DNA of 64,000 bases, from the NCBI GenBank assembly GCA_949358305.1, contig OX442314.1:11160001-11224000 (forward strand), in the 5' to 3' direction. The notes beneath the pieces were generated by a model. The model made no database searches. It worked only from the letters and a program-made list of their open reading frames with translations, and was not told the origin of the DNA. The DNA is from Strigamia acuminata (lineage: Eukaryota). Below, piece by piece: positions 28,414-63,621 of the stretch (the stretch's first letter is position 1; each line of letters starts with the position of its first letter). Made by a program: the position numbers and the translations under genes.

Positions 28414-33088
<4,675 letters not shown>

Positions 33089-41544: not shown

Positions 41545-42494
41545 TTAGCTGGTAAGAGAAGAAATGATTTAAGAAATTAGTGGGATTACAATATACTACA
41601 AAGTATTTACGCTTTATTTTTTGTATCCAGATATTGATCATAGTTTTTTGCTCCGATACGTGTTTACTTCGATAATTCGACTCTAAATTTGGAGTTGTTT
41701 CGATACGTGTTTACTTCGATAATTCGACTCTAAATTTGGAGTTGTTTCGATGGCCTGAGATGGGAGTCTCTGGGCCGCTCAGAACCGTGTGTTCCAGTCG
41801 CAACCGCTTTATTTTCTAGTTTGTTTATATTTTTGTACAATTGGATTTAGTTATACAATGCAGTAGTTTTCTCTAATTATCGCATTGTTATTCTCGCGGA
41901 TGATTGTTCTAAATAACACCACATTATTGCTTGAGAATTTTAATAGATTTGTCTCTTTTCAGGTGCAGAAAAGGTATCTTCGACTCATTTGACGCATATA
42001 AACGGTGTGGCCATTTTGGTTTAATTTTTTTACACACAGAAATTGACTAGGCGCGCATTTACAATTTTTGTTTATGTCGTTTTTGACGTTTGTAAATACA
42101 GAATGTACACTAAAAACAAGCACCAAAAACCGCTCGCACACTGGAGTTGTTTTTGAAGTGGTTCATGTCGGGTTTTGGTTTTGGCAACTAAACTCAAAAT
42201 GGCTGCCACAAAAGTTACATCGCTTTCAGGCGATGCATCCACCTTCTAAAACGTGAGTAAATGCGTTAATGTGCCTAATTAGGCTTAAAGGGGATAATAA
42301 AACCATAAAGGAGGGTTATAAATCTCCTTGAGAGCAAGGGTGACAAGTAAGGTCAAGAATCTGTCTTGACCATCCACAGTCGGGTGTTGTTGATCATGAT
42401 GAACAACACCATCTAGTGAAAAGTAAACAAGAAGTTGGTTTCCCTGCTGAACAAATCCAACATGGCGACTGACTTGACTTTAAGATTTATATTT

Positions 42495-43309: not shown

Positions 43310-43541
43310 GTACTTATGGCCACGGGTTAATAAATCCACATATATGCCTATGACACGTTAATGACAAATATAGCCTCGAAGCAAGACTTTATTGATACTC
43401 AAACCTTACATGGTGAGGTCGGGGACGGATCACGAAGAAATTTCAAAATAACTATTTTATTTTTATTTTTCTATAATTACTTTTATTGAACCAACAACTG
43501 TTTAACATAATTGTACAGGGGTTAGTGGCTTTAAATTGCTT

Positions 43542-44504
43542 TGTGGTGATCTCAAAATATTCACCAACTTAGAAGATTAAATTAATTATCTTCTAATTAA
43601 TTTGACTGTGGCACACGCCAAGTCAGATCATGTGACCGAGGGGAGAAATCCTCTCTAGGCACATATCACCCCAGGTTGTCCGGGGTGAAAACGGTTATTA
43701 GCCGTTATGGTGCAATATGGTGTAATAACCACTAGTTGCACCCATTTGAGCTAAGTGCGCAGGTTTTCTGCGCAATATTGAAGCGTGCTGGGCTCGCGTC
43801 TTGGCTCAAATCGGGACTCTGAAAAATACAACAACAACCTCAACATCACTGCGATATTTGCTCCGACAATACGTATTGATAGAGGACCGTTGTAACTCAG
43901 TTTCATCTGCTATCTTTGTGTCATCCAAAGCACAAAGCCAGCAATTCAGCTTGAATTAGCCGTCGCTAATTCCAGCTATCGAGAAGAAGAAGTTTCCTGA
44001 TCCAAGTGAACCATCGCCATCGTTGCCGCGCGAACGGCAACCATCGCCATCGTACCTGGACCAGACGCCTACAGCCGTCAACCACCGCCGCCGAGCCGTC
44101 GCACGAGCCGTAGAAGAAACCCACGAGAACCATCGTCTTCGACCATCGTTCGTGAGTTTGCCGAGAACGAAGACATTTGCCTTCGATCAACAACATCTCG
44201 TTGTTTAAGCGCCATTTCTGACGCTTTGTAGCTTGCAACAGTCGTTGCAAGCCCTTCCTTTGTTCCCGCTCATTTATTCTTGCGACTTGTCGCATTCTGT
44301 GATATTTCCATCGTTTTTAATATATATTGTAATTTAAAGAATAAATATTTGTGTGATTTTTATTACCATATTAAATTGTGCCTTTATTTCCCTAAACTTA
44401 ACCCTAGACAAGTTTCGGCCGCGATATAAGTCTTGTAAAGCATTCACCTGCGGTTTCTGCTTAATTTATTAGAAATTAAGTGGATAAAAACCCGGATCGC
44501 AGCA
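43542..44504 (+). repeat. 5' LTR
   Basis: TGTGGTGATC...GATCGCAGCA; no difference from the 3' LTR found by eye; AATAAA near 44340. Confidence 0.97.
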
Positions 44505-44506
44505 CG

Positions 44507-44524
44507 TGGGGGCCCGTCCGGGAT
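44507..44524 (+). promoter_or_regulatory. Primer binding site, tRNA-Pro
   Basis: TGGGGGCCCGTCCGGGAT, one base different from the MLV-type tRNA-Pro PBS TGGGGGCTCGTCCGGGAT. Confidence 0.85.
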
Positions 44525-44615
44525 AGTCATTGTATAACTTTGTTAGTTAAAATTTACCCGCCATTTTTATCTTGCTTATCTTTCTTCTCTATCCTTTCTA
44601 AATCCTCATTGAAAA

Positions 44616-47600
44616 ATGGCGACTCCTTCAGAGAAGAGACCGAGAGGAAGGCCGGCGAAGAGACGAGTGGCGATCGATCTACCAGTCGTGGATCAAGAAG
44701 TGACTGAGTCACAAGAATTGTTTGAAGCCATGGATCAAACAGCTAACTGTAACTCGGCACAGTTAATCGTGAATGAATTCACGCAAGCGTTGGAGCGACA
44801 ACAGCCATCCCCGCCAAGCGGCCAGTTGGACTTAAACAATCCAACTGGAAGTGGCCGTTCCAAGTCGCAAAACGATGATTTGAATTTACGAATTCAATCA
44901 TCAAGTGCGGAGCACTCGCTGAATTCATCACCGGTTCAAGGTGCAGCACAACAAGATTCTGAGAACTCCAATATGGAAGTTTCTCATTCTCCCGTGCGTG
45001 TTACCATGATGGACGCACTCCGTGAGCAAGCTAGGCTCGAGGGAGTAAAAGTCACTAGCGAAATGACTGTGGAACAAATCCACAAAGCTATGGTTCGCAA
45101 ACAAAGCCAAAAAGACGTTGAAATCGTCAGAACAAGCTTGCAAGCAGAGTTCGAGCGAATGCGTGCAGAAATGCATCAGCAAAATGCCGAACTAAAACAA
45201 CAACGTGCGAATGACCATGTTAAGTTGTTACAATTAGAACAGGAAAAAGCTTCCTGGCTAATTACTGACGAAGAGCAACAACAAAGGCTCGAGCAACTAA
45301 ATCAAGCCCAAAAAGATTTAGAAATTGCTAATGAAAATTTGAGATTGGCCAACGCAAATTTGCGAGAAGCCAACACAAATTTAATGACTGCCGAACTAAC
45401 CGCCCCAGTTCGAGCGAGGGAAGTAATTCCCTCCACTTCTCGAAATTACGAGAATCATGCTGCAGAGCAAGCAGCAAGAGCTAAGAGATTAGCACAACGA
45501 GAAAACGAAGTATTTCTCGCTCGACAGCAGTCCGTAATTGATGCTGGTCTAGCCGCCAAAAGTCAAAGTACTGCAGAGCAGTTATTACGTGCCGACTTAG
45601 CTGCGCAAGCTCGTGAAAACGAAATTCTTCGCGCAGATCTATTGACGGTACAAGAGAACTTTGCAGTAGTAGTACAAAAAGTACAAGACGTTTGTGGCGA
45701 AGATAATTTTGCAAAGCCAGCCCCAGTTTTGCAAAAAGGTGCTTCCAAATCACCTGAGTTGATTGATTTAACATCAGCTAAACCAAAAGTCAGTCGACAA
45801 TCAAGTTGGACTGACAGTGATGACTCACGCAGTAGTCGTGGAAGCCGTAACAGTCATCACAGTCGCAAAAAGCGAAAGCGACAACCAGACCCGACCGAAT
45901 ATCATTCCCCAAAAGTTACGCAAGATTCGGATCGATTCTTTAGCAATAGCGACCGATTAATCGGAATGCTAGAGAAAAAGAATAAAGAACGTGAGAAACC
46001 ACACGATCGTGGACGGTCACACGATAATCCGCGAGAAGGCTCACCAAAACGAGATTGTCATAACGACATCCGTGATGGGCCGAGATACCGTGGAAATCCG
46101 CCAGGTGGTGACCCACCAGGTGGAGATAGTTCAGATGGACATGGAGGTGGCCACTCACGTGACCACAATTCGAATGGCAATCGAAATGGAAGGGGACCAC
46201 CAAATGGAGACCGTCGTCCGCCAGATGGCGACGATCCTCCGGACCCTGATCCGCCGCCAAATCCGAATCATGAATCTGCGTCAGATACAGATTCCTCACG
46301 TCCCAGTGTGAGAGGGCGATCTCGTCACAGAACACGTAGTAGAACTCAAAGACCCGATTTCTACACGAAAGATGAGATTGACCAGTTGTTGAGGCAAAAT
46401 GCTCAACAACAGCGAAAAAGCAGAAGGGATAAAATTATTTTGCAAAAAATAAGTGAATTTACTTCTGATAAATGGACTCATCAAACAACAGATGAAAAGT
46501 TCATTAGATGGGATCGAGTTATCCCACATGCCTATAATGGAAATTGGCAAGCAGGGTCAAACCTCTTGCTGGAAATATTCGAACTAGGCAAAGTTCACAG
46601 TTTTAGCTGTGAAGGTGCATTGGCCCATCTAGTACCAAGAATACTAGTTGGCGGTGTCAAGGAGTGGTTTCGCAGGAAAGACTTCACGAAGTGGGATGAC
46701 TTCGTTAAACAATTTATGTTTAAATTTGGTGAATCGAGCGAAGACATCAAAACGCTCTGGAGATGTCTTAAGCAACGAAAAGGCGAAAGCTTACATTCGT
46801 ACATGCTAAGAGCAGAGAATCTGCTTGGCAGAATGCCACATGCTGTTACTGATGCAACAGCAGATGATCAGTTTAGAGCTGGCCTCACAGAATATAGTAA
46901 AAATATTCTGATGATGTCGGACGCTCCCGACCCGGGGAAATTCTCCGAGTTAAACGAATTCATGGAAGTCAATCAATTGCGCATTGACGAAAAGTACAAA
47001 GCTTATCTTACAGAAGCCGAAAGGTCAGCGTACTTAAAGCGAGAGAAAAGACTCGCTGAGCAAAACAATGAAACCTTTAATGGTTTGAAATTGTTGCAGC
47101 CACCTAGTTACGAAGACTTTCTAGACGAAGTGGATGAGAAGAGTTCGAAAAAAGAATCTTCCAAAAAGGACGTCAAAAATCCTCATTCAGTCCCTAAGTT
47201 ACACGCAAATATAACTGGAGCTGAAACTCCGTCGTCTGAAGCTGAAGAAGCTGAAGAGGAGGAGGAAACAGGAGACGAGACGATGGCTTTATTGGCCAAA
47301 GCAGCGGCGTTGTTAGCAAAAAATAACCCCGTTGCGGGCAAATGGAAGCCAAGGATGAAACCAAAAAATGTTTCATTTGACGCATCAAAGGTGAATACCG
47401 AAAGGAATTCAAAGTCACCTGCGGTGTCGCCAGAGCGCCGGTCTGACGCTCGTTCTCGTTCTGCCTCGCCAGCAGCAACGAAAAAGAAATCGCCTGCCAC
47501 TGATCCATGCAATTTATGCAAAAAATTAGGGCATTGGCAAAAAGACTGCCCTTCCTCTAAAAAGGACAAACCAGTGTCAACAGCTGAGTTTGAAAAAGCA

Positions 47601-47639
47601 GTCAAGATCATAACTGACATGTTTCGAAAAAACTTGTAG
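44616..47639 (+). CDS. gag: Gag, 1007 aa (N-terminal RPRGRP, coiled coil, low-complexity linker, capsid-like region, CCHC knuckle)
   Basis: W..F...F..KF...LKQRKGES capsid-like motif; CNLCKKLGHWQKDC knuckle. Confidence 0.93.
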   Translation: MATPSEKRPRGRPAKRRVAIDLPVVDQEVTESQELFEAMDQTANCNSAQLIVNEFTQALERQQPSPPSGQLDLNNPTGSGRSKSQNDDLNLRIQSSSAEHSLNSSPVQGAAQQDSENSNMEVSHSPVRVTMMDALREQARLEGVKVTSEMTVEQIHKAMVRKQSQKDVEIVRTSLQAEFERMRAEMHQQNAELKQQRANDHVKLLQLEQEKASWLITDEEQQQRLEQLNQAQKDLEIANENLRLANANLREANTNLMTAELTAPVRAREVIPSTSRNYENHAAEQAARAKRLAQRENEVFLARQQSVIDAGLAAKSQSTAEQLLRADLAAQARENEILRADLLTVQENFAVVVQKVQDVCGEDNFAKPAPVLQKGASKSPELIDLTSAKPKVSRQSSWTDSDDSRSSRGSRNSHHSRKKRKRQPDPTEYHSPKVTQDSDRFFSNSDRLIGMLEKKNKEREKPHDRGRSHDNPREGSPKRDCHNDIRDGPRYRGNPPGGDPPGGDSSDGHGGGHSRDHNSNGNRNGRGPPNGDRRPPDGDDPPDPDPPPNPNHESASDTDSSRPSVRGRSRHRTRSRTQRPDFYTKDEIDQLLRQNAQQQRKSRRDKIILQKISEFTSDKWTHQTTDEKFIRWDRVIPHAYNGNWQAGSNLLLEIFELGKVHSFSCEGALAHLVPRILVGGVKEWFRRKDFTKWDDFVKQFMFKFGESSEDIKTLWRCLKQRKGESLHSYMLRAENLLGRMPHAVTDATADDQFRAGLTEYSKNILMMSDAPDPGKFSELNEFMEVNQLRIDEKYKAYLTEAERSAYLKREKRLAEQNNETFNGLKLLQPPSYEDFLDEVDEKSSKKESSKKDVKNPHSVPKLHANITGAETPSSEAEEAEEEEETGDETMALLAKAAALLAKNNPVAGKWKPRMKPKNVSFDASKVNTERNSKSPAVSPERRSDARSRSASPAATKKKSPATDPCNLCKKLGHWQKDCPSSKKDKPVSTAEFEKAVKIITDMFRKNL

Positions 47640-47673
47640 ACGCAGATCCATCAGGTCTAGTGGACGCTGCGTC
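47627..47673 (+). promoter_or_regulatory. -1 ribosomal frameshift signal: A AAA AAC plus downstream hairpin
   Basis: Heptamer in gag phase (cgA AAA AAC); 5 nt later GACGCAG-ATCCA...TGGA-CG-CTGCGTC; pol is in the -1 frame and open from the heptamer. Confidence 0.8.
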
Positions 47674-50600
47674 ACCTCCGAAATCGGAATCAGAGAATGA
47701 AAATCTGAAGATAATGGAAGATGTTGGAGAAGTTATTGATGAATTAATTCGTCAAACAGAACTAAAAGAAAAAGGATCTCTTGATGTAAAAAAGGAGATT
47801 GTCGGCGAAACCCCGACTGAAGAAGACACTTCCAATATTCAAGATAAAGTCGAAGTTAAAGACGATAGACCAAGCTCAGTTCCAGAGACACCTGGAATTG
47901 AGGAGTGCATTAAGTTATTTGCAGCTACAACTCTTGATACCAATGAGTTATTAGATGAATTGCCTTTGGAGCCTCCAATTACAGTTCCTCATAAATTGCG
48001 CAAGTTTGAGTGCAAAGTGGCTGGAATACCAAACAGCCAAGACCTTCCGACGTTAAAGTTAGAAACGTTAAAAGGTGTAATAACCGGAATGTTGGACTCA
48101 GGAGCAAATAAAAGCTTCCTAGCCACTTCAGTTATTAATCAACTAGGTCTAGAAAAATATCTACGACCTATCGGACCTGGTGTCAGAGTTACGACGGCAA
48201 GTGAAGAAGTCACTCCAGATGGAACCATCCATCTTTCATTTCGATGGACACATGGCACGTTACGTCATCCGTTCATCGTAATACCAAATAAGTATCCAAT
48301 GGTACTATTGGGTTGCGATTTTATGAATAAATTAAAAATCCAACCTAATCCACAGACGATGTCTTGGAATTTCACGCAACCTATGGATGCAGATTTACCC
48401 TACATTCCACAAGCGTTGCTGGATCGTTATTTGGAGAAAATAGAGGAACCCGATTCCTCATTTATGACCTTTGCAAAAGCTTACGCTGCAAGTGTAACTC
48501 AAGGCAAAATTGATGAAGAGAATTTCATCCAAAAGTTAGTCGAAGAAGCTAACTTAAATTTGGAGCAATCCAAATTATTAGAAAAGATGTTATCCAAACA
48601 TAAAAGGATTATTTCTAAAGATCCAGGTAAAACACACCTGGTTAAGCACAAAATTGAGCTTGACACGGAGAAACCCATCCGTGTCCCCTTTAAGAGCATA
48701 AACCCTCAAAAAAGGGAAATAATCAGACAACTTTGTCAAGACATGATTGACAAAGGCGTAGTCGTCAAAGCTGAAGGCGATTACGGAATGCGGCCAGTCC
48801 TAGTCATGCGACCAGGAAACGACCCACGCTTGTGCATTGATTTTCGCCCCATCAATACACATACTAAGTACAACCCACCTCAAATGCCAACAATTGAGGA
48901 AATTCTGCGAGAAATCGGAGAATTCGAATGGGTCAGTACTATAGATCTGACCAAGGGATATTGGCAGATAGAATTGCGACCTGAAGACAGAGAAAAAACT
49001 GCCTTCTGGAGCCCAATGGGAAGACTAATGTTTTTAGTCATGCCTTTCGGATTAGTAAACGCACCAACTACTTTCCAAGAATTGATGGAAAAGGTTTTGG
49101 GTGACGTTTACAGAAAATTTGCATGGGCATATTTGGATGACATAATTGTTGTATCCAAATCGTTCGAAGAACACATTAAACATTTAGATATAGTGTTTAA
49201 AAAATTGGCAGAAGCTAATTTACATGCGCACCCTGGCAAGACGCATCTCTGTAGAAAGGAATTAATTTTTCTAGGCTACAAAGTAGGAGTAGAAGGACTT
49301 GCAGTAGACCCTAAAAAAGTCGCTGCAATTACGCAATTTCCGGCTCCTACCAATCTTAAGGAATTACAAAGATTTCTAGGCATGGTGAATTTCTTTCACC
49401 GCCTAATCAAGAATTTGGCCACAGTGGCAGAACCACTAAGGCCTCTCTTGAAGAAAGATGCGGAGTTCGATTGGGAACTGCATCATCAGGCAGCATTCGA
49501 CGCAATAAAAGACTTGCTTACGAATGCTGAAACAATGAAGATGCCTGACTTGTACATGCCATTTATTGTTCATACTGACGCCAGTAAACAAGGGTTGGGT
49601 GCAGCCCTTACACAAAAGAAAATTGTGGATGGCCAAGAAGTCGAAATGCCATGCGTGTATGCAAGCAGAAGCTTGCAACCCGCTGAAAAGAATTATACTG
49701 TGACAGAATTAGAATGTCTCGCAGTAGTATGGGGATTACGCAAATTTCGCCCATACTTAGAGTACACTACATTCACTGTACAAACGGATCACCAAGCACT
49801 TAAGTGGTTGATGTCGTTATCTGACCCGTCGGGCAGATTAGCTCGTTGGCAAATGGAGCTGATGGCGTATTCGTTCGAAATACAATACGTCAAAGGTCCG
49901 CTAAATGTAATAGCAGACGCATTGTCACGTGCACCTGTCAGCGCACCTGACGAACCAGAAGACGATGGCGATAATGATGATTTATTATCATATTGTCCAT
50001 CTCCTTGCCGAAGTTGGCAAATGGGAAAATTGAACGAATTACCCAAGTCAATAATAGTTAATGACGACGATCAAGCATTAATTAATTTTTGTATTAACAT
50101 GCATGATCCGTCAGGAACCCCTGACGTCGAATTAAGAGCTATGATGGCTAAAAAATTCGAGCTGCCAACAACAAATGTTTTAATTAAAGCATTTGCAGCT
50201 AAAATTGCTAAGCAATTAGAATGTGATCCTCCAACGAGAGATGACATTATTGCGGCGCAAAAAGCAGACCAATTTTGCCAACATATTCGCAATTACTTGT
50301 TAAACAAGCAATATCCAAGTTACATAGTAACTCGTCTTCAAAGAAGAAATTTTGAAAGACACGCGAGTACTTATCTCATTGAAGAAGATATGTTACTCCA
50401 TTATCATCCTACCTCTACCGATGAATTAGGAGAGGATGGTAGGGCACTTAAAGTTGTTGTGCCAAGAAAATTGATTTATAAAATCATTTGGTTGATGCAC
50501 GGACATCCACTGTCCGGCCACCCAGGCATTGCGAGGACAATGTACCGAACTCGAAGAGTTTATACCTGGAAAGGTATGAAACGTGATATTACACGTTTTA

Positions 50601-51886
50601 TTCAACATTGTCAAGGATGTCAGGCATGTAAGCCGAGATCAAAGACCGAAATTGAAGGCGCTCAAATTGGACCATTTGGACCATTTGACTGCCTCAGTGT
50701 GGATTTGTCTGGTCCCAAACCAAGAACCAGAAAAAACAATACCCACATTTGCGTCATCATAGATGTCGCTACACATTGGCCCGAATTATTTCCAATGTGT
50801 AATCCAACGGCAATAAAAGTTGCCAACACAATTTATCACTTATCAATGACTTTCGGATTTCCGAGACAAATCATAAGTGATAATGGACCACAATTTCGAT
50901 CACAGGTCTATAAAGAATTTTGCAAAAAATTCGACATGTCGCGAACACCGACATCGATTTATCATCCACAAAGCAATCCTGTGGAAAGAACCAATCGAGA
51001 TATTAAATATTTAGTTTCGATTTATTTAGATATTCATGACCAATGGGATGAGTATCTACGCGAATTTGCATTCAGTTTGAGAACAACTGTAACAAGAGGC
51101 AGAGATTATTCTCCTGCTTTCTTAAATTTTTTCCGAGAATTAAGAATTCCTTGGGATCCAAGAATTCCGGAAGGAATTTTAGTCATTGATCCAAAAAATC
51201 CGCATTTATATGTTCAGAAATTAGAAACAATAATTGCAGAGACGTATCAGCATATGATGTCTCACGTCTTAGATTTGAGACGCCGTGTCGAAGCTGAAAA
51301 ATCAGATAAGAAATTCGACAACTTCAGACAAAATGATTTAGTCTGGCGAGAGTCTCATATTCTCTCAAATGCCGCTAAAGGAATAGCAGCAGGCATTTCA
51401 CCGAAAAGGAATGGGCCTTATGTAATTATCAAAAGGTTACAAGGAGGCGCCTTTCAACTTCGACGGCTGAGTGATAATAAAATTTATCCAGCTGTTCACG
51501 GCACTGAATTAATGCCGTACTTTCCCGTTTTCAACCAAGAAATTTGGCTGGAAGGGGAGGAAGTGGGTCAAAAAACAAAAAATATTGTTAATACCTTGGA
51601 TGATGCTAAATTATCCAAAATTCCTGTCGAAAACACGGAATCGAGTAAAAAATCGAAACTCAAAAATAACGAAGTCGATGAAATAAACCAGCGACTTGAA
51701 AATGTTTCTCTTGATGAAAATCTAGAAAAGGAAATGTTTTTAGAAAAAGAGAAAATTTCAAACAATGAAGTATATAACTCATCTGACATTGGAGACGATG
51801 CTGATGACAATCTAAACAAGTTGGATTGTACTTCGCGAAAGTCAAAGTACAACTTGAGATCTCGCGTTCCGCGAGCCAAGACATAG
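47633..51886 (+). CDS. pol: Pol polyprotein: protease, RT, RNase H, integrase (probably made as a Gag-Pol fusion)
   Basis: LDSGA; RLCIDFR, DLTKGYWQI, MPFGL, YLDD; TDAS, ELECLA, TDH, ADALSR; H..P.SGHPG..C..C, SDNGPQF, NPVER, GPY. Confidence 0.98.
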   Translation, partial: LVDADPSGLVDAASPPKSESENENLKIMEDVGEVIDELIRQTELKEKGSLDVKKEIVGETPTEEDTSNIQDKVEVKDDRPSSVPETPGIEECIKLFAATTLDTNELLDELPLEPPITVPHKLRKFECKVAGIPNSQDLPTLKLETLKGVITGMLDSGANKSFLATSVINQLGLEKYLRPIGPGVRVTTASEEVTPDGTIHLSFRWTHGTLRHPFIVIPNKYPMVLLGCDFMNKLKIQPNPQTMSWNFTQPMDADLPYIPQALLDRYLEKIEEPDSSFMTFAKAYAASVTQGKIDEENFIQKLVEEANLNLEQSKLLEKMLSKHKRIISKDPGKTHLVKHKIELDTEKPIRVPFKSINPQKREIIRQLCQDMIDKGVVVKAEGDYGMRPVLVMRPGNDPRLCIDFRPINTHTKYNPPQMPTIEEILREIGEFEWVSTIDLTKGYWQIELRPEDREKTAFWSPMGRLMFLVMPFGLVNAPTTFQELMEKVLGDVYRKFAWAYLDDIIVVSKSFEEHIKHLDIVFKKLAEANLHAHPGKTHLCRKELIFLGYKVGVEGLAVDPKKVAAITQFPAPTNLKELQRFLGMVNFFHRLIKNLATVAEPLRPLLKKDAEFDWELHHQAAFDAIKDLLTNAETMKMPDLYMPFIVHTDASKQGLGAALTQKKIVDGQEVEMPCVYASRSLQPAEKNYTVTELECLAVVWGLRKFRPYLEYTTFTVQTDHQALKWLMSLSDPSGRLARWQMELMAYSFEIQYVKGPLNVIADALSRAPVSAPDEPEDDGDNDDLLSYCPSPCRSWQMGKLNELPKSIIVNDDDQALINFCINMHDPSGTPDVELRAMMAKKFELPTTNVLIKAFAAKIAKQLECDPPTRDDIIAAQKADQFCQHIRNYLLNKQYPSYIVTRLQRRNFERHASTYLIEEDMLLHYHPTSTDELGEDGRALKVVVPRKLIYKIIWLMHGHPLSGHPGIARTMYRTRRVYTWKGMKRDITRFIQHCQGCQACKPRSKTEIEGAQIGPFGPFDCLSVDLSGPKPRTRKNNTHICVIIDVATHWPELFPMCNPTAIKVANTIYHLSMTFGFPRQIISDNGPQFRSQVYKEFCKKFDMSRTPTSIYHPQSNPVERTNRDIKYLVSIYLDIHDQWDEYLREFAFSLRTTVTRGRDYSPAFLNFFRELRIPWDPRIPEGILVIDPKNPHLYVQKLETIIAETYQHMMSHVLDLRRRVEAEKSDKKFDNFRQNDLVWRESHILSNAAKGIAAGISPKRNGPYVIIKRLQGGAFQLRRLSDNKIYPAVHGTELMPYFPVFNQEIWLEGEEVGQKTKNIVNTLDDAKLSKIPVENTESSKKSKLKNNEVDEINQRLENVSLDENLEKEMFLEKEKISNNEVYNSSDIGDDADDNLNKLDCTSRKSKYNLRSRVPRAKT

Positions 51887-52075
51887 TGTTGTCTTTCACC
51901 TTTTGGGTTTACCCAAAAGATCCGAGAAAGCAATCTCGTGACGTCATTCGTAGTACCCACTCGAATGACAACGTTAATCATACGTTATAATTAGTGACGT
52001 CACAAAGCGTCTCTAATCCAAGTTCGTGTTTGCAATCAACGAACTTAGTCACTTTTTCAAAAGTTTCGAGAGTGT

Positions 52076-54868
52076 ATGCATCGCATCGCCTACGTTACGA
52101 CCCGAATAGTTCGACAACCTGATCGTAAGTAATTTTTCTGTATGAAAAATTTGATAAAACATAAGATTTATGTATTATTTCTCTTTCAAGACGAAAGAAT
52201 TTCCGAAATTACCGGAAAACGAAAGAGAATGGACGAGGAAGCGATCCAACTCCAGGCGGACGGAGAAATGCCCATGGAAGGGGCAAATGAAGACGTTCAA
52301 TTGACGCTTCAACAACGGGTAAATTATTAGAATAAATTTTTACCAAGTGTTTAAGTCAGAAAAATTGAGTAATTTCACTTTTCCTGACTTCAAACACAAG
52401 CCGCTAAAAAATAAAAATGGCGGCTATAAAAGTCACGTGCTTCAAGCATGTGCGAAGGGAGTTGCCATGACAACCAACATCCCTTAGTGACTCACAGCCA
52501 CAAGCGCTAAGCTTAAAAAATATTTCAAATAAGAAATTATTTGTTTATTTTTAAATAAACTAATTTATTTATTTTTCTTCGAATACAGATCGAGAGGGAT
52601 CGAGAAACGCCATTCGCGCTTCCCGATCACGTGCCGACTCAGCACCCGCTGATTTTTCGAGCGGCATTGCCCGAAAAAATCAGAAGACTGAAGACGGCAA
52701 ACAATACCTGGTGGAAGTTGCGCCACGACTTCAGCAGATCAGCGCTGCAAGGATTTGGTGCAAAAGGAAGATTCATCGAGCGCCTTCACGTGGACGGTGT
52801 CGACGAAATCGAGTGGACGCTCGACGAGAGCCCCCCAGGACCGCTTGCAGCAGAGTTGCTGCACAACCAGTGGCCAGTGACGCCACGAGAGCGTCACGAG
52901 CGCAGAAGAGCGCTAAAGAGTACCGGAATTAATTACGGTGCTCTAACCCAATTGAGGAAGAACCTCAAGACGACACAACGCGAAGTCGTTAAACGGTATC
53001 GCAAATCCGTTCGTGACGGGAACCCACAACTTCCCGTCACACAAACCGAGCTCCACCAGTTGGCGCTCGCCGGGTGTTTTAACGATTTTCCGGGATTTTT
53101 CCCGTCCAAAGCACTCAGAGCTGCCGCGGTGCAGCTTCGCGTCGACGAAAATCGACAACTGGCTCGAGAACACGAGGCAGAGGAGCAAGCGCGTTGCGCT
53201 CTCCCTTTTTATCAAGAAGATGAAATTCCGGCCCCAGCGGCCATCAATCCTCCGCCGCAAGACGAGGATTTGAGGGTGGGGCAACTCCCTCCGCCGGTTC
53301 CAGTCCGACCGATGTTCCGCGAATCAAGCCGCGATCGAGAGGAACGTCAGAAGCGATCACGCCCATATTCGACTGACGCGCAGCCATCACGCCCGCAGTC
53401 GCGACGAGGACGGACACCAGAGTCGTTTGGCTCGTCGTCTTCGCTGAGTTTTGAATCGGACTCCACAATTAAGTCCGCCCGAAGTAGCCGAACCGCCTCC
53501 ACGTTCAAAGTGGACAACTCGGCTACTCCATACGCCATGAGACGTGTTGTCGGTGATATTTCTCCCGACTGTAGCGTGCCAGTACCTGGACATGCTAGCC
53601 GCTTGCCCGAACAAGGATATGTTTCCCGCTTGCCGGCTGGAGTTAGCAACCTGCAACTCCGGCCATTTTTTAGTGAGTCATTCGGCCCACAATGGACCTG
53701 CTACGAGCAGCAACCCATTAGAGCACAGCAGGAAGTGCTCCAGAAGCTGGACGCATACCAAAGCGCCCAGATCGCCGAGTCGCAGAAGGACTGGCAGAGA
53801 CTAGCTGAAAGGCTAGAAGTCTCCGACATCAATACCATTGATGATCCCCGTCTGATGGATTTTCAGCGTCAGCTAATTCCGGGGATGACTAGGGTGTTGT
53901 ACCCTGGTGTTCTTCCTTCGCCAGGACAGGCGTTAGCGGCCATAACGTACCTTTGGACCGCGCCGATGGGCCTGTCGGAGAAGAAAGTCGAGCTGTGGTA
54001 CCACCTCAGGCTCGACCCGCCTACGATCTTAGCCGAGCTAATAAAGCAAGTCGTAGCAAACGGTGAGACCGAAGAAGAGGCCGCCGTTCGGTTGCGAACC
54101 GAGTGGTCCTTTGCGAAGGCCACGGCGCGAATGACCGGAAGACCACCGCTTCCAGTTACAAGCGCCACAGCAGCTGCGTCACTGGCTGTTTTCCAGTCGG
54201 CCCAAGAGGGCGCTGGATGTTCATTTTGGCCAGAGAACGCCGGAAGTTCTCAAACTCCAGCCGGAGTTCAACGGGTAGTCAAAACCCGTCAGCTCCCCGG
54301 TATGGGTCGAGCACCGGGACGAGGCGTCACACCCTCGTCAACCTCCGCACCCGCGTTGGTTTTCTTGGGCCCGCAGTGCCAGTTTGACGATGCCACGACG
54401 GAAGACTCACGTCCGCCGCCGCCGCCAGCCAAGCCGGAGACGAAGGTCAAGCCGCTGAAAAAAGAGTCGGCTTTCAAGACCCTAATGCGCCTGTATCCGC
54501 ACTTCTATTTGACGCCGGATACGCGAACACTGCTTAGCAACAACCACAAGTTGTCGAGGCAGGTGTTTATGTGGCTCGAGGACCACATCCGGGTGTTAAG
54601 CCCACCATCGGTGCTCCATGATCGACTCCTGAGAGCACGATTAGCGCCAGAGGATCCAATCGAGTTCGCGGCGCTAGGATGCTTCAACCGAGCGAACTCG
54701 GCAAGAATCATCCAGGTTTGGCTTCATGTCAACCCTGGAATGGTCTCCGGACCAAACGCAGGTCGCGACCTGTGTACGGTTAACGAGCGGTCCAACCCGA
54801 GGGACGACACCACGGATATGATGCGCCCGTTGACGCCTGAGCGAACTCAGACCATGGACGAATCATAA
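52076..54868 (+). CDS. Third gene of the LTR element, unknown function, spliced: exons 52076-52124, 52191-52318, 52589-54868 (818 aa)
   Basis: ATG at 52076; donor C|GTAAGT; acceptor TTTCTCTTTCAAG|AC (phase 1, restores CAC); donor CGG|GTAAAT; acceptor TTCTTCGAATACAG|ATC (phase 0) in frame with the 745-codon ORF, which has no early ATG of its own. Confidence 0.78.
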
Positions 54869-54907
54869 ATTGGTTCGTTCATTTTCTCTCCATGTAAGAT
54901 TCGTCTT

Positions 54908-54920
54908 AAATGGGGGGATG
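54908..54920 (+). promoter_or_regulatory. Polypurine tract
   Basis: AAATGGGGGGATG directly before the 3' LTR. Confidence 0.8.
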
Positions 54921-55883
54921 TGTGGTGATCTCAAAATATTCACCAACTTAGAAGATTAAATTAATTATCTTCTAATTAATTTGACTGTGGCACACGCCAA
55001 GTCAGATCATGTGACCGAGGGGAGAAATCCTCTCTAGGCACATATCACCCCAGGTTGTCCGGGGTGAAAACGGTTATTAGCCGTTATGGTGCAATATGGT
55101 GTAATAACCACTAGTTGCACCCATTTGAGCTAAGTGCGCAGGTTTTCTGCGCAATATTGAAGCGTGCTGGGCTCGCGTCTTGGCTCAAATCGGGACTCTG
55201 AAAAATACAACAACAACCTCAACATCACTGCGATATTTGCTCCGACAATACGTATTGATAGAGGACCGTTGTAACTCAGTTTCATCTGCTATCTTTGTGT
55301 CATCCAAAGCACAAAGCCAGCAATTCAGCTTGAATTAGCCGTCGCTAATTCCAGCTATCGAGAAGAAGAAGTTTCCTGATCCAAGTGAACCATCGCCATC
55401 GTTGCCGCGCGAACGGCAACCATCGCCATCGTACCTGGACCAGACGCCTACAGCCGTCAACCACCGCCGCCGAGCCGTCGCACGAGCCGTAGAAGAAACC
55501 CACGAGAACCATCGTCTTCGACCATCGTTCGTGAGTTTGCCGAGAACGAAGACATTTGCCTTCGATCAACAACATCTCGTTGTTTAAGCGCCATTTCTGA
55601 CGCTTTGTAGCTTGCAACAGTCGTTGCAAGCCCTTCCTTTGTTCCCGCTCATTTATTCTTGCGACTTGTCGCATTCTGTGATATTTCCATCGTTTTTAAT
55701 ATATATTGTAATTTAAAGAATAAATATTTGTGTGATTTTTATTACCATATTAAATTGTGCCTTTATTTCCCTAAACTTAACCCTAGACAAGTTTCGGCCG
55801 CGATATAAGTCTTGTAAAGCATTCACCTGCGGTTTCTGCTTAATTTATTAGAAATTAAGTGGATAAAAACCCGGATCGCAGCA
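54921..55883 (+). repeat. 3' LTR
   Basis: Direct repeat of 43542-44504, followed by the GCTT TSD. Confidence 0.97.
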
Positions 55884-55976
55884 GCTTTTATCATATGTTT
55901 ACGTATTTTCAAGCAGAGTTATTCGCGTAATAACAAATGTAGCCAGAAAATGGCCGAAGAAATAGACCAATCGCAA

Positions 55977-58017
55977 TTAAGTGAAAGTGACGCTGTCGAT
56001 ATCGACGTCGCCAGCAATCCGGATATTAGTCGCTTCATTGTACGGAAGTCGGTGTCCGAAGTAACAAAAATGCTGTTCGTTCGTAAAAACCGAGAAGAAA
56101 TCTGGTTCGCAAGCGATTTTCAAATTAAATCGTATGTCGGGCATCAAATTAAATCGTGTGTCGAGCATCAAATGCATAAACGGGGTGTCGATCTGCTCTT
56201 TGCCCCAATTTCCGCCAATGCAAGAATTCCGCACGACATATCGATCAGGGTTAAAACGAGGATTGAGGTGGAACAGGATATCGCCTGTCGTTTCATTATA
56301 CAAATCAACATGAAATCTATACACAAAAAATAAAAAAATTCAAGTGTCGTACATTTGAAATAATAAATCAAAATAAATTGAAATAAATTCTATTTTTACA
56401 CTGTAGATATGTTCCAGAAAAAACTACCAGTATATAAATATAAGCATAAACATGTAAAAAAAGACTAGAGAAATTCCCTAAATATTTGGTAGAAAATATT
56501 TTTCCTTAATATTTTAAAAAGGCAATTTTTTTAAATCACATAAAAACGGAAATTGAATTTATTTTTCTAGACACTAGCTGCATTCAAAAACTAAAATATT
56601 TTGTGTTTTACTTCAATTTTAAACCAAAAATGACATCATTTCCTGTTTAAACCCATGTTAAAACTTAAAATACACTTAAACTAAAATTGTTATTTTACTT
56701 TTTGAATGCAGCTAGTGTTAAATAAAACTAAAAATCGTGAGTACTGCTTGGGAAACGACTTCGGACTGCCGACAATCGTGATCACTTTTCCGGGCCCCAT
56801 CCAGCCGCGAATTGGATACTCAAAAGGTAATACCTACATAAGATTGAATGTTTTATTTTATTTTACGTTATTTTATTTTTAAATTTTATTTTTTAGACCG
56901 GGAAATTGACAGGTGGTGGTCCGACGGTTTGTGCGCTGTCGCCGTGCAAGAGCACTTTATCGATCATGACATCACCGACGATCTGCAGGGTGTTTATATC
57001 TTGAAATGGCAAGCGATGTGCATACCCGCAGAAATGCTGTCCATTTATTCCGATCTGTCGTGATTTGAAACGAAAAGAAAAAAAAAAGGAAATGTTAGGA
57101 ATTTTACTCGTGGGCTGGTCGCTGCCCCCAACTTTCCTGCCGAGCACTGATGGCAAAAATAAAAATAATTTATTACACCACAAAAATGGCGTGAAAGGAG
57201 AAATTTAATTTGTGAAAATTGAGAAAAATACCAATTAAAAATAACAAAAAAAACCGGAAATCCAAATTAAACTCAACTCCAAGGTCCCAAATCAAACAAA
57301 ATCTAATGGAAACAGCATGTGGACAGCTGCCGTTCTTACAAATTGCTCTAAACTACGAATTAGATCGATTTAAGGATTTTCTGCTCCAATTTAATAAGAA
57401 AGAATCTCGCCCTAGCTGAGATTCGATCATCTTAAAGTAGATGTAATAGCCCTAATGGGAGTGTTGATCCAACCCAAGCACAAGGCTATTCCATAGCGTA
57501 TAATTTAAGCGGTATACAAATTTATATTTACCTTGAATTCATTCGGTTCCACGAGAAACATCAATTGAAATGGACGGTTTCTTACTATGGTCATAATTCC
57601 CGAATGTTCTTCATGTCCCCAACCGGTCGAAGGTGTGTAGGTGTTTCTGTATATTTCATTCTCGTTAAAACGAGGGTTAAAATGAAACGCTGTTGGTGAG
57701 CGGATCTTTTCGTCAAAAATCGGTCCAGAAGCAAAATTAACTTGAAATCTGGTTCCAAAAATAGAAAATATTAATATAACACTATGAAAGAATCTTTTCC
57801 ATATCTTCTACTACACCGGTAAGCATTATTCGGTACAAATCCCTCTATTGTAATGATGCATCCTGGCTGCAGACCTGATTCAAATCTGTCGACAAATGGA
57901 ATTGCCTATAAATAAATAAATAAATAAATAAATAAAGGTGTTAAATAAACATTTTCCAGGTGTTGTAGAACATTAAAATGTAGTTACTGGTTGGATAACT
58001 GGCTGAAAAGGTCGCAT
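55977..58017 (-). CDS. Tandem-repeat galectin, copy 4
   Basis: MRPFQPVIQP first exon; N-CRD AFHFNPRF...RNT...WGHEEH; C-CRD LFHLNPRF...VVRNS...WGKEQ with an in-frame 7-aa duplication. Confidence 0.92.
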
Positions 58018-58801
58018 TTTTTGTTGTAGTTGAAGGTTTTAAAGGGACACACCCAACTATGTGCAAATCAAGGTAACTTGAATCTGGTAGACATTGTTGA
58101 TGGCTTTCAGCTAGTCATTCCACTGAAAGAACCAATGGAAAATGTACCTAAAATTATCTGCTGACTTGTACTGTTTCGATACGTGTTTACTTCGATAATT
58201 CGACTCTAAATTTGGAGTTGTTTCGATGGCCTGAGATGGGAGTCTCTGGGCCGCTCAGAACCGTGTGTTTCAGTCGCAACCGCTTTATTTTCTAGTTTGT
58301 TTATATTTTTGTACAATTGGATTTAGTTATACAATGCAGTAGTTTTCTCTAATTATCGCATTATAATTCTTGCGGATGATTGTTCCAAACAACAACTCAT
58401 TATTCCTTGAGGATTTTAATAGATTTGTCTCTTTTCAGGTGCAGAAAAGGTATCTTCGACTCATTTGACGCATATAAACGGTGTGGCCATTTTGGTTTAA
58501 TTTTTTACACACAACAGGCGCGCATTTACAATTTACGTTTGTAAAGACAGAATGTACACCAAAAACAAGCACCAAAAACCGCTCGCACACTGGAGTTGCT
58601 TTTGAAGTGGTTTATGTCATGTTTTGGTTTTGGCAACCAAACTCAAAATGGCTGCCACAAAAGTCACATCGAGGGGTCACACTTTCCAATCGTCGTATTG
58701 CTTTCAGGCGATGCATCCACCTTCTAAAACGTGAGTAAATGCGTAAATGTGCTCAAGCAAGTGAGCCACAATTCGTTAGTTGATTGGAATGATGGAATTT
58801 T

Positions 58802-60761
58802 TGTTGTGTTTTTCCGTGCTTGTTGTAGTTGTATTTTGAAGTGTAGAAATATAAAGAAAATGGACAGAGGGTTTTAGCACATGCTCACTGCTCGAGCTCT
58901 ACTACCTCACTGCTTTATTGCTTAAGTTTTAACAAGGGAGTGCCCCACATATGGTGGCCTCACAGATAACATCAAACAAAAACACACTCATAAAATTTGG
59001 GGGTTGCAGAACACCCCTATATCCCCTCAATTACAAACACAGGGAGCAATTTAAGGAGAGCAATTAAAACATGAATAACAAACAGTAAAGTAAAATGTAA
59101 AGGAATAACACTAGGATTGAAAGTATAGAAAAAGAACATAGAAATTGAATCATTGTAATTGAACACATTGTAATTGAAATAAATTGTAACACTGGAATAG
59201 TAGTGCAAATAGTTGCACGAATTTGTGGTACACCTTGTAACACACTCGAAGTTGTAACATTGTGGAAGCAGTGCAAAACATTGCACGAATTGTAAAGGTA
59301 GTGCAACACATTGCACGAATTGTAAAAGTAGTGCAAAACATTGCACGAATTATAAAACAATTTGTAAATCAAATCAAAACAACTTGCATTAAACATTGAA
59401 GCAAGAATTGGAATGAACACTGAATAAAATGAAATACAAAACGAATGAATAAAACTGAAATCATTAGAAAAAGTACATTGTAATTCATTGAAACAGATGA
59501 GTTAGAATAACTCTCCCCTCCCCCAAAAGAAGCTGGAAACAGCTAGTAGAAATCTAGAACATGGGTTTCAGTGACCACAGTGTTAATGGCGGCCGACGTA
59601 GCTCCAGACGGCATGGCAGCAGACCAGCAGGCGACCTGAATTTGGCCTGTTTTGCCGCACGCATGGCACCTGGCCTGCCGAAACTTACAATCTTGTCGGT
59701 GATGGTCTGTGGCGCCACACGAGAAGTATTTCCCCCGACCATCATGTGGTTGCTGTTGGAGACTTGCTGGGTCCACTGGGCGCGACTGACCTTGTGAAGA
59801 AGGGCCGGAACCTTTGTGGTGGTTATTTTGCTGTTTTCCACCTTCTTGTACTTTAAAAACATCAGCTGCTTTCTAGGCCGGAGCCGACGCAAATGCTGAA
59901 ACCGCCTTTGAAGAAACTTCGGCAGCAGAAGCAAAAGCCACCGCTGTTTCGAAGGTTAGATCGGCCTGAAGTGTCAGCGAGTGTTGAACATGTTGGTTTT
60001 TCAACCCACACACGAACTGGTTGCGAAGTTCATTGTTTAAATTGTCCCCAAAGTTGCAGTGCTTCGTCAATGCCTGCAATGCATTGGAGAATTCCGCGAC
60101 CGTTTCTTCTGGAGCACGTGTTCGAAAACAAAATGTAAAAATTTCCGCCATTACAAGCGGCTTCAAGCGCGTACGCGTTTCCATTAAAGCAACCAAGTCG
60201 TTGTATTTTAATGACGATGGCTCTTTTGGCAGTCATATTTGTCAACAAAGTAAATGCTGGCATTCCCACATATGACAGGAGTGTATGAACTTTCTCCTGG
60301 TCGCCCACAATTTTGTTGCATGCGAAAATTGACTTCATACGTGAAATATACGTGGTCCAATCGTCCGCCAAATCAAACTCACGCGGCGTTCCTTTTAGGG
60401 CAGCCATGGTGCACAGAACAATGGAGGGATCGAAAAAAAAAATTTCACTTTTAAAACTCACAAAACAGGAGAATAGGCCTCGCAACTGGAGTGGAATGGA
60501 TGGATTTGAAGCAGCGTGAATTCGTGTCGTACCTCGTCGCCAATTGTTGTGTTTTTCCGTGCTTGTTGTAGTTGTATTTTGAAGTGTAGAAATATAAAGA
60601 AAATGGAAAGAGGGTTTTAGCTCGTGCTCACTGCACGAGCTCTACTACCTCATTGCTTTATTGCTTAAGTTTTAACAAGGGAGTGCCCCACATATGGTGG
60701 CCTCACAGATAACATCAAACAAAAACACACTCATAAAATTTGGGGGTTGCAGAACACCCCA
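58802..60761 (-). mobile_element. Non-autonomous, internally deleted Gypsy (Mag-like) LTR element, 1,960 bp
   Basis: 217-bp LTRs (58802-59018 and 60545-60761, about 6 differences), ATTTT target duplication, PBS TGGCGACGAGG, PPT GAGGGGA; gag only. Confidence 0.9.
59543..60407 (-). pseudogene. gag: Frameshifted gag of the small LTR element
   Basis: MAALKGTPREFDLADDWTTYISRM... then a frame change to EETVAEF..AL..L..HCNFGDNLNNELRNQFVCGL, and two degenerate knuckles (CGATDHHRQDCKFRQARCHACGKTGQIQVAC). Confidence 0.85.
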
Positions 60762-61707
60762 ATTTTTAATCGCCATTTTCTTTCAAGACGACAAAACCCC
60801 AAAACTACGCCACGAACCGGCTCAAAAACGAATACATTCACAATTAGGCAAGTTTTTGCCTTCTGTTTTTGCTGTTTATTAAAACACTACACTCTACACT
60901 CCACTGATGGCACTTGAGGAGTGTTTATGCTTCTTGTCAAGACATCAGCGAGTCTTACTCTTACTAGTGGATAGAAACGTGGAACACGTGGCTCGCAGAC
61001 GTTATTCAATATTGGTTGTGACGGGACGGGAGTAATTATTGAGGGACATAAGGTCTAATATTAACACACATTATGGGGTAGTTAGAAGGCTGCACTGCAA
61101 GGCTTCTTGCAAGTCAAGGCTCTGAAAAGGAGGTTTTAGAGTGGCAGGGGGCCACTCCTACTTCTGGAATGTCACTTGAGGAGTGACAGCAAAGGGATAT
61201 AAATTTCTTTGAGGGCAAGGGTGACAGTAAGGTCAAGAATCTGTCTTGGCCATCCACGGTCGGGTGCTGTTGATCAACAACACCACCTAGTGAAAAGTAA
61301 ACAAGAAGTTGGTTTCCCTGCTGAACAAATCCAACATGGCGACTGTCTTGACTTTAAGGTTTATACCGGGTATTTAAAAAGTACTTATGGCCACGGGTTA
61401 ATAAACCCACATGTATGCCTATGACACGTTAATGACAAATATAGCCTCGAAGCAAGACTTTATTGATACTCAAACCTTACATGGTGAGGTCGGGGACGGA
61501 TCACGAAGGAATTTAAGAATAACTATTTTCTTTTTATTTTGCTATAACAACTTTTATTGAACCAACAACTGTTTAACATAATTGTACAAGGGTTAGTGGC
61601 TTTAAATTGCTTTTATCATATGTTTACGTATTTTCAAGCAGACGCAGAGTTATTCGCGTAATAACAAATGTAGCAAGAAAATGGCCGAAGAAATACACCA
61701 ATCGCAA

Positions 61708-63621
61708 TTAAGTGAAAGTGACGCTGTCGATATCGACGTCGCCAGCAATCCGGATATTAGTCGCTTGATTGTACGGAAGTCGGTGTCCGAAGTAACAAAA
61801 ATGCTGTTCGTTCGTAAAAACCGAGAAGAAATCTGGTTCGCAAGCGATTTTCAAATTAAATCGTGTGTCGGGCATCAAATGCATAAACGGGGTGTCGATC
61901 TGCTCTTCGCCCCAATTTCCGCCGATGCAAGAATTCCGCACGACATATCGATTAGGGTTAAAACGAGGATTGAGGTGGAACAGGATATCGCCCGTTGTTT
62001 CATTATACAAATCAACATGAAATCTATAAACAAAAAATAAAAAAATATAAATGTCGTACATTTGAAATAATAAATCAAAATAAATCGAAATAAGTTGAAA
62101 TAAATATTTTTCCTTAATATTTTAAAAAGGCAATTTTTTTAACCGTGTTAAATCAAAAGAAATCACGTAAAAACGGGAATTGAATTTATTTTTCTAGACA
62201 CTACCGGTAGCTGCATTCAAAAACTAAAATATTTTGTGTTTTACTTCAATTTTAAATATAAAATGACATCATTTCCTGTTTAAACCCATGTTAAAACTTA
62301 AAATACACTTAAACTAAAATTTTTATTTTAATTTTTGTATGCAGTGTTAAATAAAAATAAAAATCGTGTGTACCGCTCGGGAAACGACTTCGGACTGCCG
62401 AGAATCGTGATCACTTTTCCGGGCCCCATCCAGCCGCGGATTGGATACTCGAAAGGTAATGCCTACATAAGATTGAATGTTTTATTTTATTTTACTTTAT
62501 TTTATTTTTTAATTTTATTTTTTAGACCGGGAAATTGACAGGTGGTGGTCCGACGGTTTGTGCGCTGTGCAAGAGCACTTTATCGATCATGACATCACCG
62601 ACGATCTGCAGGGTGTTTATGTCTTGAAATGGCAAGCGATGTGCATACCCGCAGAAATGCTGTCCATTTATAGCGATCTGAAGTGATTTGAAACGAAAAG
62701 AAAAAAAAAAGAAAATGTTAGGAATTTGACTCGTGGGCTGGTCGCTGCCCCCAACTTTCCTGCCGAGCACTGATGGCAAAAATTAAAATAATTTATTACA
62801 CCACAAAAATGGCGTGGAAGGAGAAATTTAATTTGTGAAAATTGAGTAAAATACCAATTAAAAATAACAAAAAAAACCGGAAATCTAAATTAAACTCAAC
62901 TCCAAGGTCCCAAATCAAACAAAATCTAATGGAAACAGCATGTGGACAGCTGCCGTTCTCTAAACTACTTATTAGATCGATTTAAGGATTTTCTGCTCCA
63001 ATTTAATAAGAAAGAATCTCGCCCTAGCTGAGATTCGATCGTTTTAAAGTTGATGTAATAGCCCTAATGGGAGTGTTGATCCAACCCAAGCACAAGGCTA
63101 TCCCATAGCGTATAATTTAAGCGGTATACAAATTTATATTTACCTTGAATTCATTCGGTTCCACGAGAAACATCAATTGAAATGGACGGTCTCTCACTAT
63201 GGTCATAATTCCCGTATTTTCTTCATGTCCCCAACCGGTCGAAGGTGTGTAGGTGTTTCTGCATATTTCATTCCCGTTAAAACGAGGGTTAAAATGAAGC
63301 GCTGTTGGTGAGCGGTTCTGGTCGTCAAAATTCGGTCCAGAAGCAAAATTAATTTGAATTCTGGTTTCAAAAATAGAAATTATTAAGATTACACTACGAA
63401 AGAATCTTCTCCATATCTTCTACTACACCGTTCAGCATTATTCGGTACAAATCCCTCTATTGTAATGATGCATCCTGGCTGCAGACCTGATTCAAGGCTG
63501 TCAACAAATGGAATTGCCTATAAATAAATAAATAAATAAAGGTATTGATTAAATGTTTTCCAGGTGTTGTAGAGCTTTAAAATGTAGTTACTGGTTGGAT
63601 AACTGGCTGAAAAGGTCGCAT
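61708..63621 (-). CDS. Tandem-repeat galectin, copy 5 (recent duplicate of copy 4)
   Basis: Near-identical exons, introns and flanks to copy 4; N-CRD ALHFNPRF...WGHEEN; C-CRD LFHLNPRF...WGEEQ. Confidence 0.93.

Follow-up and report, generated by a model that had tools for sequence, protein, structure and literature searches.

Between the pol gene and the 3′ LTR of a retrotransposon in the genome of Strigamia acuminata lies a long open frame without recognizable relatives, and the locus raises the question of whether this frame belongs to a genuine, spliced gene of the element and, if so, what such a gene would do there. The window, i.e., the whole stretch of 64,000 nucleotides that was analyzed, is animal DNA with intron-rich phosphorylase, calmodulin and galectin genes, and the parts of the element found in it are as follows.

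43538–43541 and 55884–55887: target-site duplication GCTT, 5′ copy and 3′ copy
43542–55883, + strand: complete LTR element, Ty3/Gypsy
43542–44504, + strand: 5′ LTR, TG...CA, 963 bp, same sequence as the 3′ LTR
44507–44524, + strand: primer-binding site, recognized from sequence
44616–47639, + strand: gag, 1008 codons, with a C-terminal zinc knuckle
45022, 45991 and 47391: in-frame candidate splice donors within gag (the first two in phase 1, the third in phase 0)
47618–51886, + strand: pol, 1422 codons, PR-RT-RH-IN in the order given by Pfam, overlapping the end of gag
51887–52075, + strand: spacer between pol and the third gene, 189 nt, an array of hairpins in which TGACGTCA palindromes occur twice (51939 and 51995)
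54908–54920, + strand: polypurine tract
54921–55883, + strand: 3′ LTR, with AATAAA at 55719

The insertion is intact and very young, and the element belongs to Ty3/Gypsy. Its LTRs, which a first-pass annotation of this DNA had called apparently identical, agree at 963/963 bp (43542–44504 vs. 54921–55883), and an empty site with a single GCTT is present near 61609 in a 96% identical galectin repeat of the same window. The features by which Ty3/Gypsy elements are recognized are all found, namely the PR-RT-RH-IN order, TG...CA LTRs, primer-binding site, polypurine tract, target duplication and a gag with a zinc knuckle. Neither a second copy of the element nor a solo LTR occurs within the 64-kb window, and the insertion lies ~90 nt beyond the stop codon of one galectin copy. 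The sequence AAAAAAC at 47627–47633 suggests a −1 frameshift between gag and pol. The C-terminus of pol (about 51848–51883) reads KYNLRSRVPRAKT, with similar pol ends in the Gypsy loci L024 and L040, and we take this stretch to resemble the chromatin-binding stretch of foamy virus Gag. The primer-binding site is presumably of the tRNA-Pro type. Elements of the Osvaldo lineage in Culex use a tRNA-Lys primer (PMC3286476; this and the papers cited below by PMC number are drawn on as extracts).

Downstream of pol and its spacer, the third gene is predicted to be composed of three exons.

52076–52124, + strand: predicted exon 1, with a start codon in weak context
52125–52190, + strand: predicted intron 1, 66 nt, GC 0.20, GTAAGT...AAG, with an in-frame stop
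52191–52318, + strand: predicted exon 2, with KRKR followed by an alternative ATG at 52229 in strong context
52319–52588, + strand: predicted intron 2, 270 nt, GC 0.31, with a GC-rich hairpin island (52419–52512) and TATAAAAG at 52425
52589–54868, + strand: exon 3, 759 codons, an orphan

The two AT-rich introns of 66 and 270 bp, their compatible phases, the 818-aa product and its N-terminus had been proposed in the first-pass annotation and were all reproduced in the DNA, since the three exons join through GT-AG introns in phases 1 and 0 into 818 codons with zero internal stops. Exon 3 alone provides 759 open codons (P about 6e-13 from composition), and the remaining five frames over it contain 17–32 stops. 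The 241 codons ahead of its first Met (residue 242) are all open (P about 1e-4), from which a further exon upstream is to be expected. In exon 2 only one frame out of three is open, that required for joining, and intron 1 is not readable through owing to its in-frame stop.

The splice sites were scored with matrices derived from 15 phosphorylase introns of the host (43–399 nt, GC 0.10–0.39). By these matrices the acceptor at 52190 ranks first among the 798 AG dinucleotides of the element and the donors at 52125 and 52319 take ranks 12 and 14 among 546 GT; the acceptor at 52588 ranks 24 of 798, its score of 2.7 lying near the bottom of the leave-one-out range for host sites (0.4–19.3), and an out-of-frame GT at 52129 scores above the donor at 52125. 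Both predicted introns match the 15 host introns in length, GC and splice sites, intron 1 falling within the short host class (43–77 nt). Blind GC segmentation of 52000–52900 places breaks at 52125/6 (fits of 5, 7 and 8 segments) and at 52319/20 (fits of 6 to 8 segments); the fit with the best BIC, in 3 segments, picks out the AT tract ahead of the second acceptor and nothing else. Donors of the form GTRAG are depleted in the internal region of the element (8 seen vs. 18 expected), and GTAAGT is not below chance there (1 vs. 1.64 expected). From this sequence evidence the predicted introns are likely real, and the reading of the exons and open frame as a real, non-env accessory gene borne by the element is supported.

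Since the gene occupies the env position, a highly diverged envelope or fusogen has to be considered, and one R-x-K-R site (exon-3 residue 253) would suit it. The properties of the predicted protein make this reading extremely improbable. Over a 19-residue window the hydropathy of exon 3 reaches 1.0 at most, and the 9-residue maxima are 1.33 for exon 1 and −0.12 for exon 2; with such low maxima neither a membrane span nor a signal peptide is predicted, and the hydrophilic exons 1 and 2 agree with the earlier description of a protein lacking both. Exon 3 has 8 scattered Cys, no CxxC and a single N-glycosylation sequon in 759 aa. Search of Pfam with exon 3 returned 0 families at E<=1, though the same library detected Baculo_F in 3/28 third ORFs of other loci (L008, L017, L035). 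The gene resembles the errantivirus env genes (F-type, gB-type) in following pol within an intact Ty3/Gypsy element and differs from them, as far as extracts of PMC13524379 describe these genes, in the lack of a signal peptide, a membrane anchor and a fusogen domain. The classification of the gene as non-env was upheld by the absence of membrane features and of Pfam families.

Two single-sequence structure models of the protein, both poor (pLDDT 41 and 43), consist of helix and coil only, which also speaks against an envelope. Three helical patches are predicted (about aa 84–203, 375–538, and 628–699), linked by disorder rich in Pro, Ser and Arg, in accordance with the Arg/Ser-rich and Pro-rich disordered middle noticed before. 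An internal repeat (LAGCFN/LGCFN) was considered and rejected, as self-alignment did not recover it.

The protein family had not been recognized at first sight, and the product proved to be an orphan in all sequence, profile and structure searches. Homologs of exon 3 were found neither by phmmer among 1.84 billion representatives nor by a word-indexed search covering proteins of length 417–1329; no match was obtained in the ESM Atlas for the whole of exon 3 or for residues 365–545 (recognition 1024, low), in viral and metagenome contigs, or in PHROGs, and PDB sequences yielded 0 matches at E<=10. A tBLASTn check of exon 3 against all 143 loci gathered for this work gave no match. Foldseek found none at E<=0.001 in PDB or BFVD, a result that with models of pLDDT 41–43 does not imply a new fold, and the best VIA-align score (Z 6.0 across 44–55 residues) concerns generic helices only. 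With the same low-pLDDT models no DNA-binding fold was detected by Foldseek or VIA-align, and no nuclease or enzyme domain such as the bdelloid DEDDy or GDSL domains emerged from Pfam or, at E<=10, from PDB sequences.

Third ORFs other than env are already known. Those of the bdelloid elements Juno and Vesta also follow pol and encode DEDDy exonuclease, GDSL esterase, coiled-coil and TM proteins, i.e., mostly recognizable enzymes or membrane proteins (PMC5408684), whereas the present gene has no known domain and two predicted internal introns (the word “intron” is absent from the main text of that paper). Plant Retand/Tat elements carry additional ORFs (TRP28) in antisense orientation, unlike the sense ORF of the animal element described here (PMC11963269).

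The transcript of the element is predicted to be folded along its entire length, the third gene and its introns included, far beyond what shuffles or host DNA show. In a scan of 188 windows of 120 nt in five element parts, the mean folding z was −2.5 for the LTR, −2.1 for gag, −2.7 for pol, −3.0 for the spacer with exons 1 and 2 and the introns, and −1.8 for exon 3, compared with −0.1 to −0.5 in four host control regions and +0.2 for shuffled pol. The predicted folding is stronger in the sense than in the antisense strand, five selected strong windows gave z −3.4 to −6.4 with a second independent tool, and the spacer window 51942–52061 has a z of −6.35. For gag, pol and exon 3 alike, the real sequence surpasses 12/12 synonymous-codon shuffles in predicted folding, so that the protein sequence does not explain the folding excess. 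An excess of predicted folding that extends over the entire genomic RNA and its coding regions has likewise been described for flavi-, picorna-, calici- and coronaviruses; here it is a prediction and concerns a clade of LTR retrotransposons. The idea of hairpins that hide the splice sites found no support, the 4 element sites being no more base-paired than the sites of 14 host introns. A search of the element against Rfam gave two chance hits only.

Such an RNA brings in the possibility that the protein counters host silencing by small RNA or chromatin rather than controlling splicing, with the dense RNA structure as a second shield. Ordered RNA structure at genome scale has been proposed to protect the RNA of viruses against cell defences (PMC9784701), and an orphan, fast-changing and mostly disordered protein would be typical of genes in conflict with the host. 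No nuclease or enzyme domain of the kind present in the bdelloid DEDDy ORF3s was detected by Pfam in the protein, and an anti-silencing role is considered unlikely.

The relatives of the element are distant, the closest RT identity in the collections being about 47%, with no near relative. An RT-RH tree (32/105 rows, with long branches) groups the element with P0041, L010, L024, L056, L071 and L078 (100/97), and a FastTree of 121 rows adds L007 to the clade (0.99). When the RT-RH regions of 75/80 metagenome Gypsy loci were compared with their shuffles, the median folding gain was 2.9%, against 33.8% for the element. The loci of its clade rank 1, 2, 3, 4, 6 and 34 of 75 (36.9, 29.9, 27.1, 20.0, 16.7, and 3.1%); L078, L071, L056, L007 and L024 share the excess (ranks 1–4 and 6) and L010, with ordinary RT folding (3.1%), is the exception. 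As these loci are kin, their folding excess counts as about one inherited event. The excess in the RT region (34% vs. a median near 3%) is nevertheless a cheap computed marker of the clade, and it raises the question of whether retrotransposons resist splicing, decay or small-RNA silencing by means of global RNA structure.

A hydrophilic third ORF begins after pol in 4/6 DNA loci of the clade (L007, L010, L024, L056), the contigs ending before the 3′ LTR in 5/6. In L007 this ORF overlaps the end of pol, in L010 (263 aa) it abuts pol, in L024 its ATG directly follows an AT-rich acceptor-like AG, and downstream of pol in L056 a TATA box and GTAAGT...AG (53 nt) precede the ATG; the sequences of L071 and L078 end past a TATA box and donor-like sites. 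None of these clade ORFs is similar to the third gene of the element, so they may be unrelated genes. Plus-strand ORFs of at least 200 codons are also present in 23/35 Gypsy loci with at least 1.5 kb beyond the integrase core, and these 23 include three F-type env and some ORFs from neighbouring elements.

Several minor observations were made among these loci. An Ulp1 protease, two deoxynucleoside kinase and ankyrin ORFs lie 3′ of Gypsy integrases at L006:3586–4674, L076:9155–10971 and L065:6591–7790. One family of post-pol ORFs is common to L014:6249–6995, L020:4047–4916 and L023:4807–5409 (E 1e-7 to 1e-10) and another to L064:2794–3495 and L074:2626–3369 (E 1e-43). In L010 an ORF of 122 codons (L010:259–625) lies ahead of gag.

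The composition of exon 3 leads to another alternative, namely that a host or viral gene was recently captured together with its introns and is carried as a passenger without a role for the element. The third gene is richer in GC than pol (0.57 vs. 0.40), as noticed in the first-pass annotation; its fourfold-site G+C (0.56 in exon 3) is unlike that of gag and pol (0.34–0.35) and nearer to that of the host phosphorylase (0.53), and the predicted introns are host-like. Set against this are the lack of homologs among the 1.84 billion representatives, the presence of third ORFs in the relatives, GC-rich in L056 and L024, and the folding excess of the element, which exon 3, the introns and the spacer carry and the host gene does not. 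As exon 3 and the introns share this excess, the third gene has likely long formed part of the packaged RNA. A passenger is accordingly a very improbable explanation; judged from sequence and predicted folding, the third gene appears to be an old constituent of the element, and the reading held with good confidence is that of an accessory gene that is functional, is spliced and has long resided there.

The point at which the protein starts is less clear. The ATG at 52076 is in a weak context (T at −3, C at +4), and that at 52229, just past KRKR, is flanked by the same bases as the starts of gag and the host gene (A at −3, G at +4). The NLS-like KRKR noted earlier is present in exon 2, yet it belongs to the protein only if the weaker start at 52076 is used and would be absent from a product that starts at 52229. 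Possible origins of the transcript are an internal promoter, the donor at 44152 in the LTR and the in-frame donors in gag. Two of the latter, 45022 and 45991, are in frame with the acceptor at 52190 and the third, 47391, with that at 52588, each match having a 1-in-3 chance. The gene had been described as self-contained, which was not established since these donors permit a fusion to Gag similar to that of CERV, a protein made from a spliced mRNA of Cer1 (a Ty3/Gypsy element of Caenorhabditis elegans) and needed for export of the genomic RNA (PMC10309623).

The exons would in that case represent the 3′ part of a Gag-ORF3 fusion, with a particle-associated or nuclear accessory Gag as the product. 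The weak start at 52076 and the example of CERV, which has exons 1–3 in common with gag (PMC10309623), are in favor of a fusion. Apart from the modest value of each frame match, the short AT-rich intron 1 with its GTAAGT donor implies a genuine upstream exon (52076–52124), and in L056 and L024 the ATG comes directly after the acceptor, which makes the fusion improbable. It concerns the transcript and could be compatible with an export, a transactivator or an anti-silencing role.

The spacer (51887–52075) may possibly serve as an internal promoter or leader. A transcriptional transactivator that activates the LTR in the manner of foamy virus Tas, and that has an internal promoter located between the end of pol and the 3′ LTR, would fit the two TGACGTCA palindromes of the 189-nt spacer (0/20000 shuffles had two), TATAAAAG at 52425, the acidic exon 2 and the Pro/Ser-rich middle of the protein. 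It would also fit the finding of a TATA box with a donor-like site within 400 nt past the pol stop in 3/5 clade loci vs. 1/44 others, for patterns chosen post hoc (L007, with too short a tail, was left out, and the element itself has no TATA in that span). The palindromes may merely reflect selection for hairpins, however, TGACGTCA is frequent in the host DNA of this region (11 in the window vs. 0.8 expected), the TATA of the window lies within intron 2, downstream of exons 1 and 2, and no DNA-binding fold was found. The combination of Tas and an internal promoter is a known layout, and foamy virus tas/bel-2 is, like the third gene, an accessory gene that adjoins the 3′ LTR, possibly with an internal promoter (PMC7828637). 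Foamy viruses differ in that they are Retroviridae with env, there is no sequence similarity, and the internal promoter is a candidate only in the present element. A transactivator is on balance an unlikely role. Nine of the TGACGTCA copies are in host DNA within 1707–37903, four of them in 10007–10311 amid inverted repeats.

The introns themselves point to another function. A new copy of a retrotransposon that still bears introns must derive from unspliced RNA, and this young intact insertion retains both predicted introns. Since introns kept in new copies mean that the packaged RNA was unspliced, the element must export RNA that contains introns. The two introns would be removed from a subgenomic mRNA, originating from an internal promoter, the LTR leader or a gag donor, and would persist in new copies only via packaging of the unspliced RNA. 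A spliced product that can be made before the genomic RNA is exported, and that binds structured RNA, would be a natural candidate for the export factor. The preferred reading, by analogy and with a probability of about 0.4, is that the third gene encodes a nuclear regulator similar to CERV or Rev that aids the export of the full-length, unspliced, hairpin-rich RNA; granted a functional, spliced and long-resident accessory gene, the chances of an export role would be about even.

The closest precedent for such a regulator, again by analogy, is CERV; the first-pass annotation named neither this protein nor the RNA structure along the element. Cer1 makes a spliced mRNA as well as the unspliced genomic RNA (PMC10309623, PMC3315495). 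Both CERV and the third gene product are orphan accessory proteins of invertebrate Gypsy elements with an NLS candidate (KRKK-type in CERV, KRKR here) and three folded patches joined by linkers (predicted in the present case); CERV derives from a multiply spliced mRNA and the genomic RNA of Cer1 must skip the splice sites. The two differ in that the first exons of CERV are shared with gag, whereas the predicted exons of the third gene are wholly 3′ of pol; in that CERV has a Cys loop (possibly a C4 finger); and in length (517 aa in CERV, up to 818 aa here). CERV also has a G-protein-like domain; the present models, without beta sheet, are at pLDDT 41–43 of too low a quality to judge such a domain by. 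Evidence against the export reading includes the absence of a CERV-type CxxC loop from exon 3 and the fact that NES-like motifs (5 vs. 6.3 in shuffles) and Arg-rich motifs (best basic window 7/15, matched by 29% of shuffles) are no commoner than expected.

Export of intron-containing genomic RNA has been explained for few LTR elements, CERV being the invertebrate example found, and a separate intron-bearing orphan gene in a young element would provide a second, independent and testable case. In a broader and more doubtful extension of the analogy, the element might be the first member seen of an invertebrate Gypsy clade organized like complex retroviruses without an envelope, with end-to-end hairpin RNA and an intron-bearing 3′ gene that licenses its export. 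If true, this would add a new protein family, encoded by a self-contained 3′ gene, and an RNA folded as in persistent RNA viruses.

With regard to novelty, non-env third ORFs (bdelloid and plant Retand elements) and a spliced accessory gene (Cer1) are already known. New here are the orphan of up to 818 aa, its two predicted internal introns wholly 3′ of pol and the clade with extreme predicted RNA structure. At the level of titles in the open-access literature, no paper was found that deals with RNA structure across the genome of an LTR retrotransposon, with a third gene interrupted by introns of its own, or with the combination of an orphan intron-bearing 3′ gene with extreme RNA structure; extracts of PMC5718144 and PMC2774666 contain nothing on third-gene introns.

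The host surroundings provide some further observations. The glycogen phosphorylase gene (28414–33088, + strand) has look-alike tandem exons at 29904–30038 and 30082–30213, which are likely to be mutually exclusive; with the first of them the gene comprises 850 codons and no stop. The galectin genes form a tandem array (33486–42000 and 55977–63500, − strand), and a long frame inside it (35974–36489, − strand) is presumably RPB7-like. At 60030–60641 (− strand) a remnant resembling gag, from a second LTR element, was recognized by eye, with no Pfam match.
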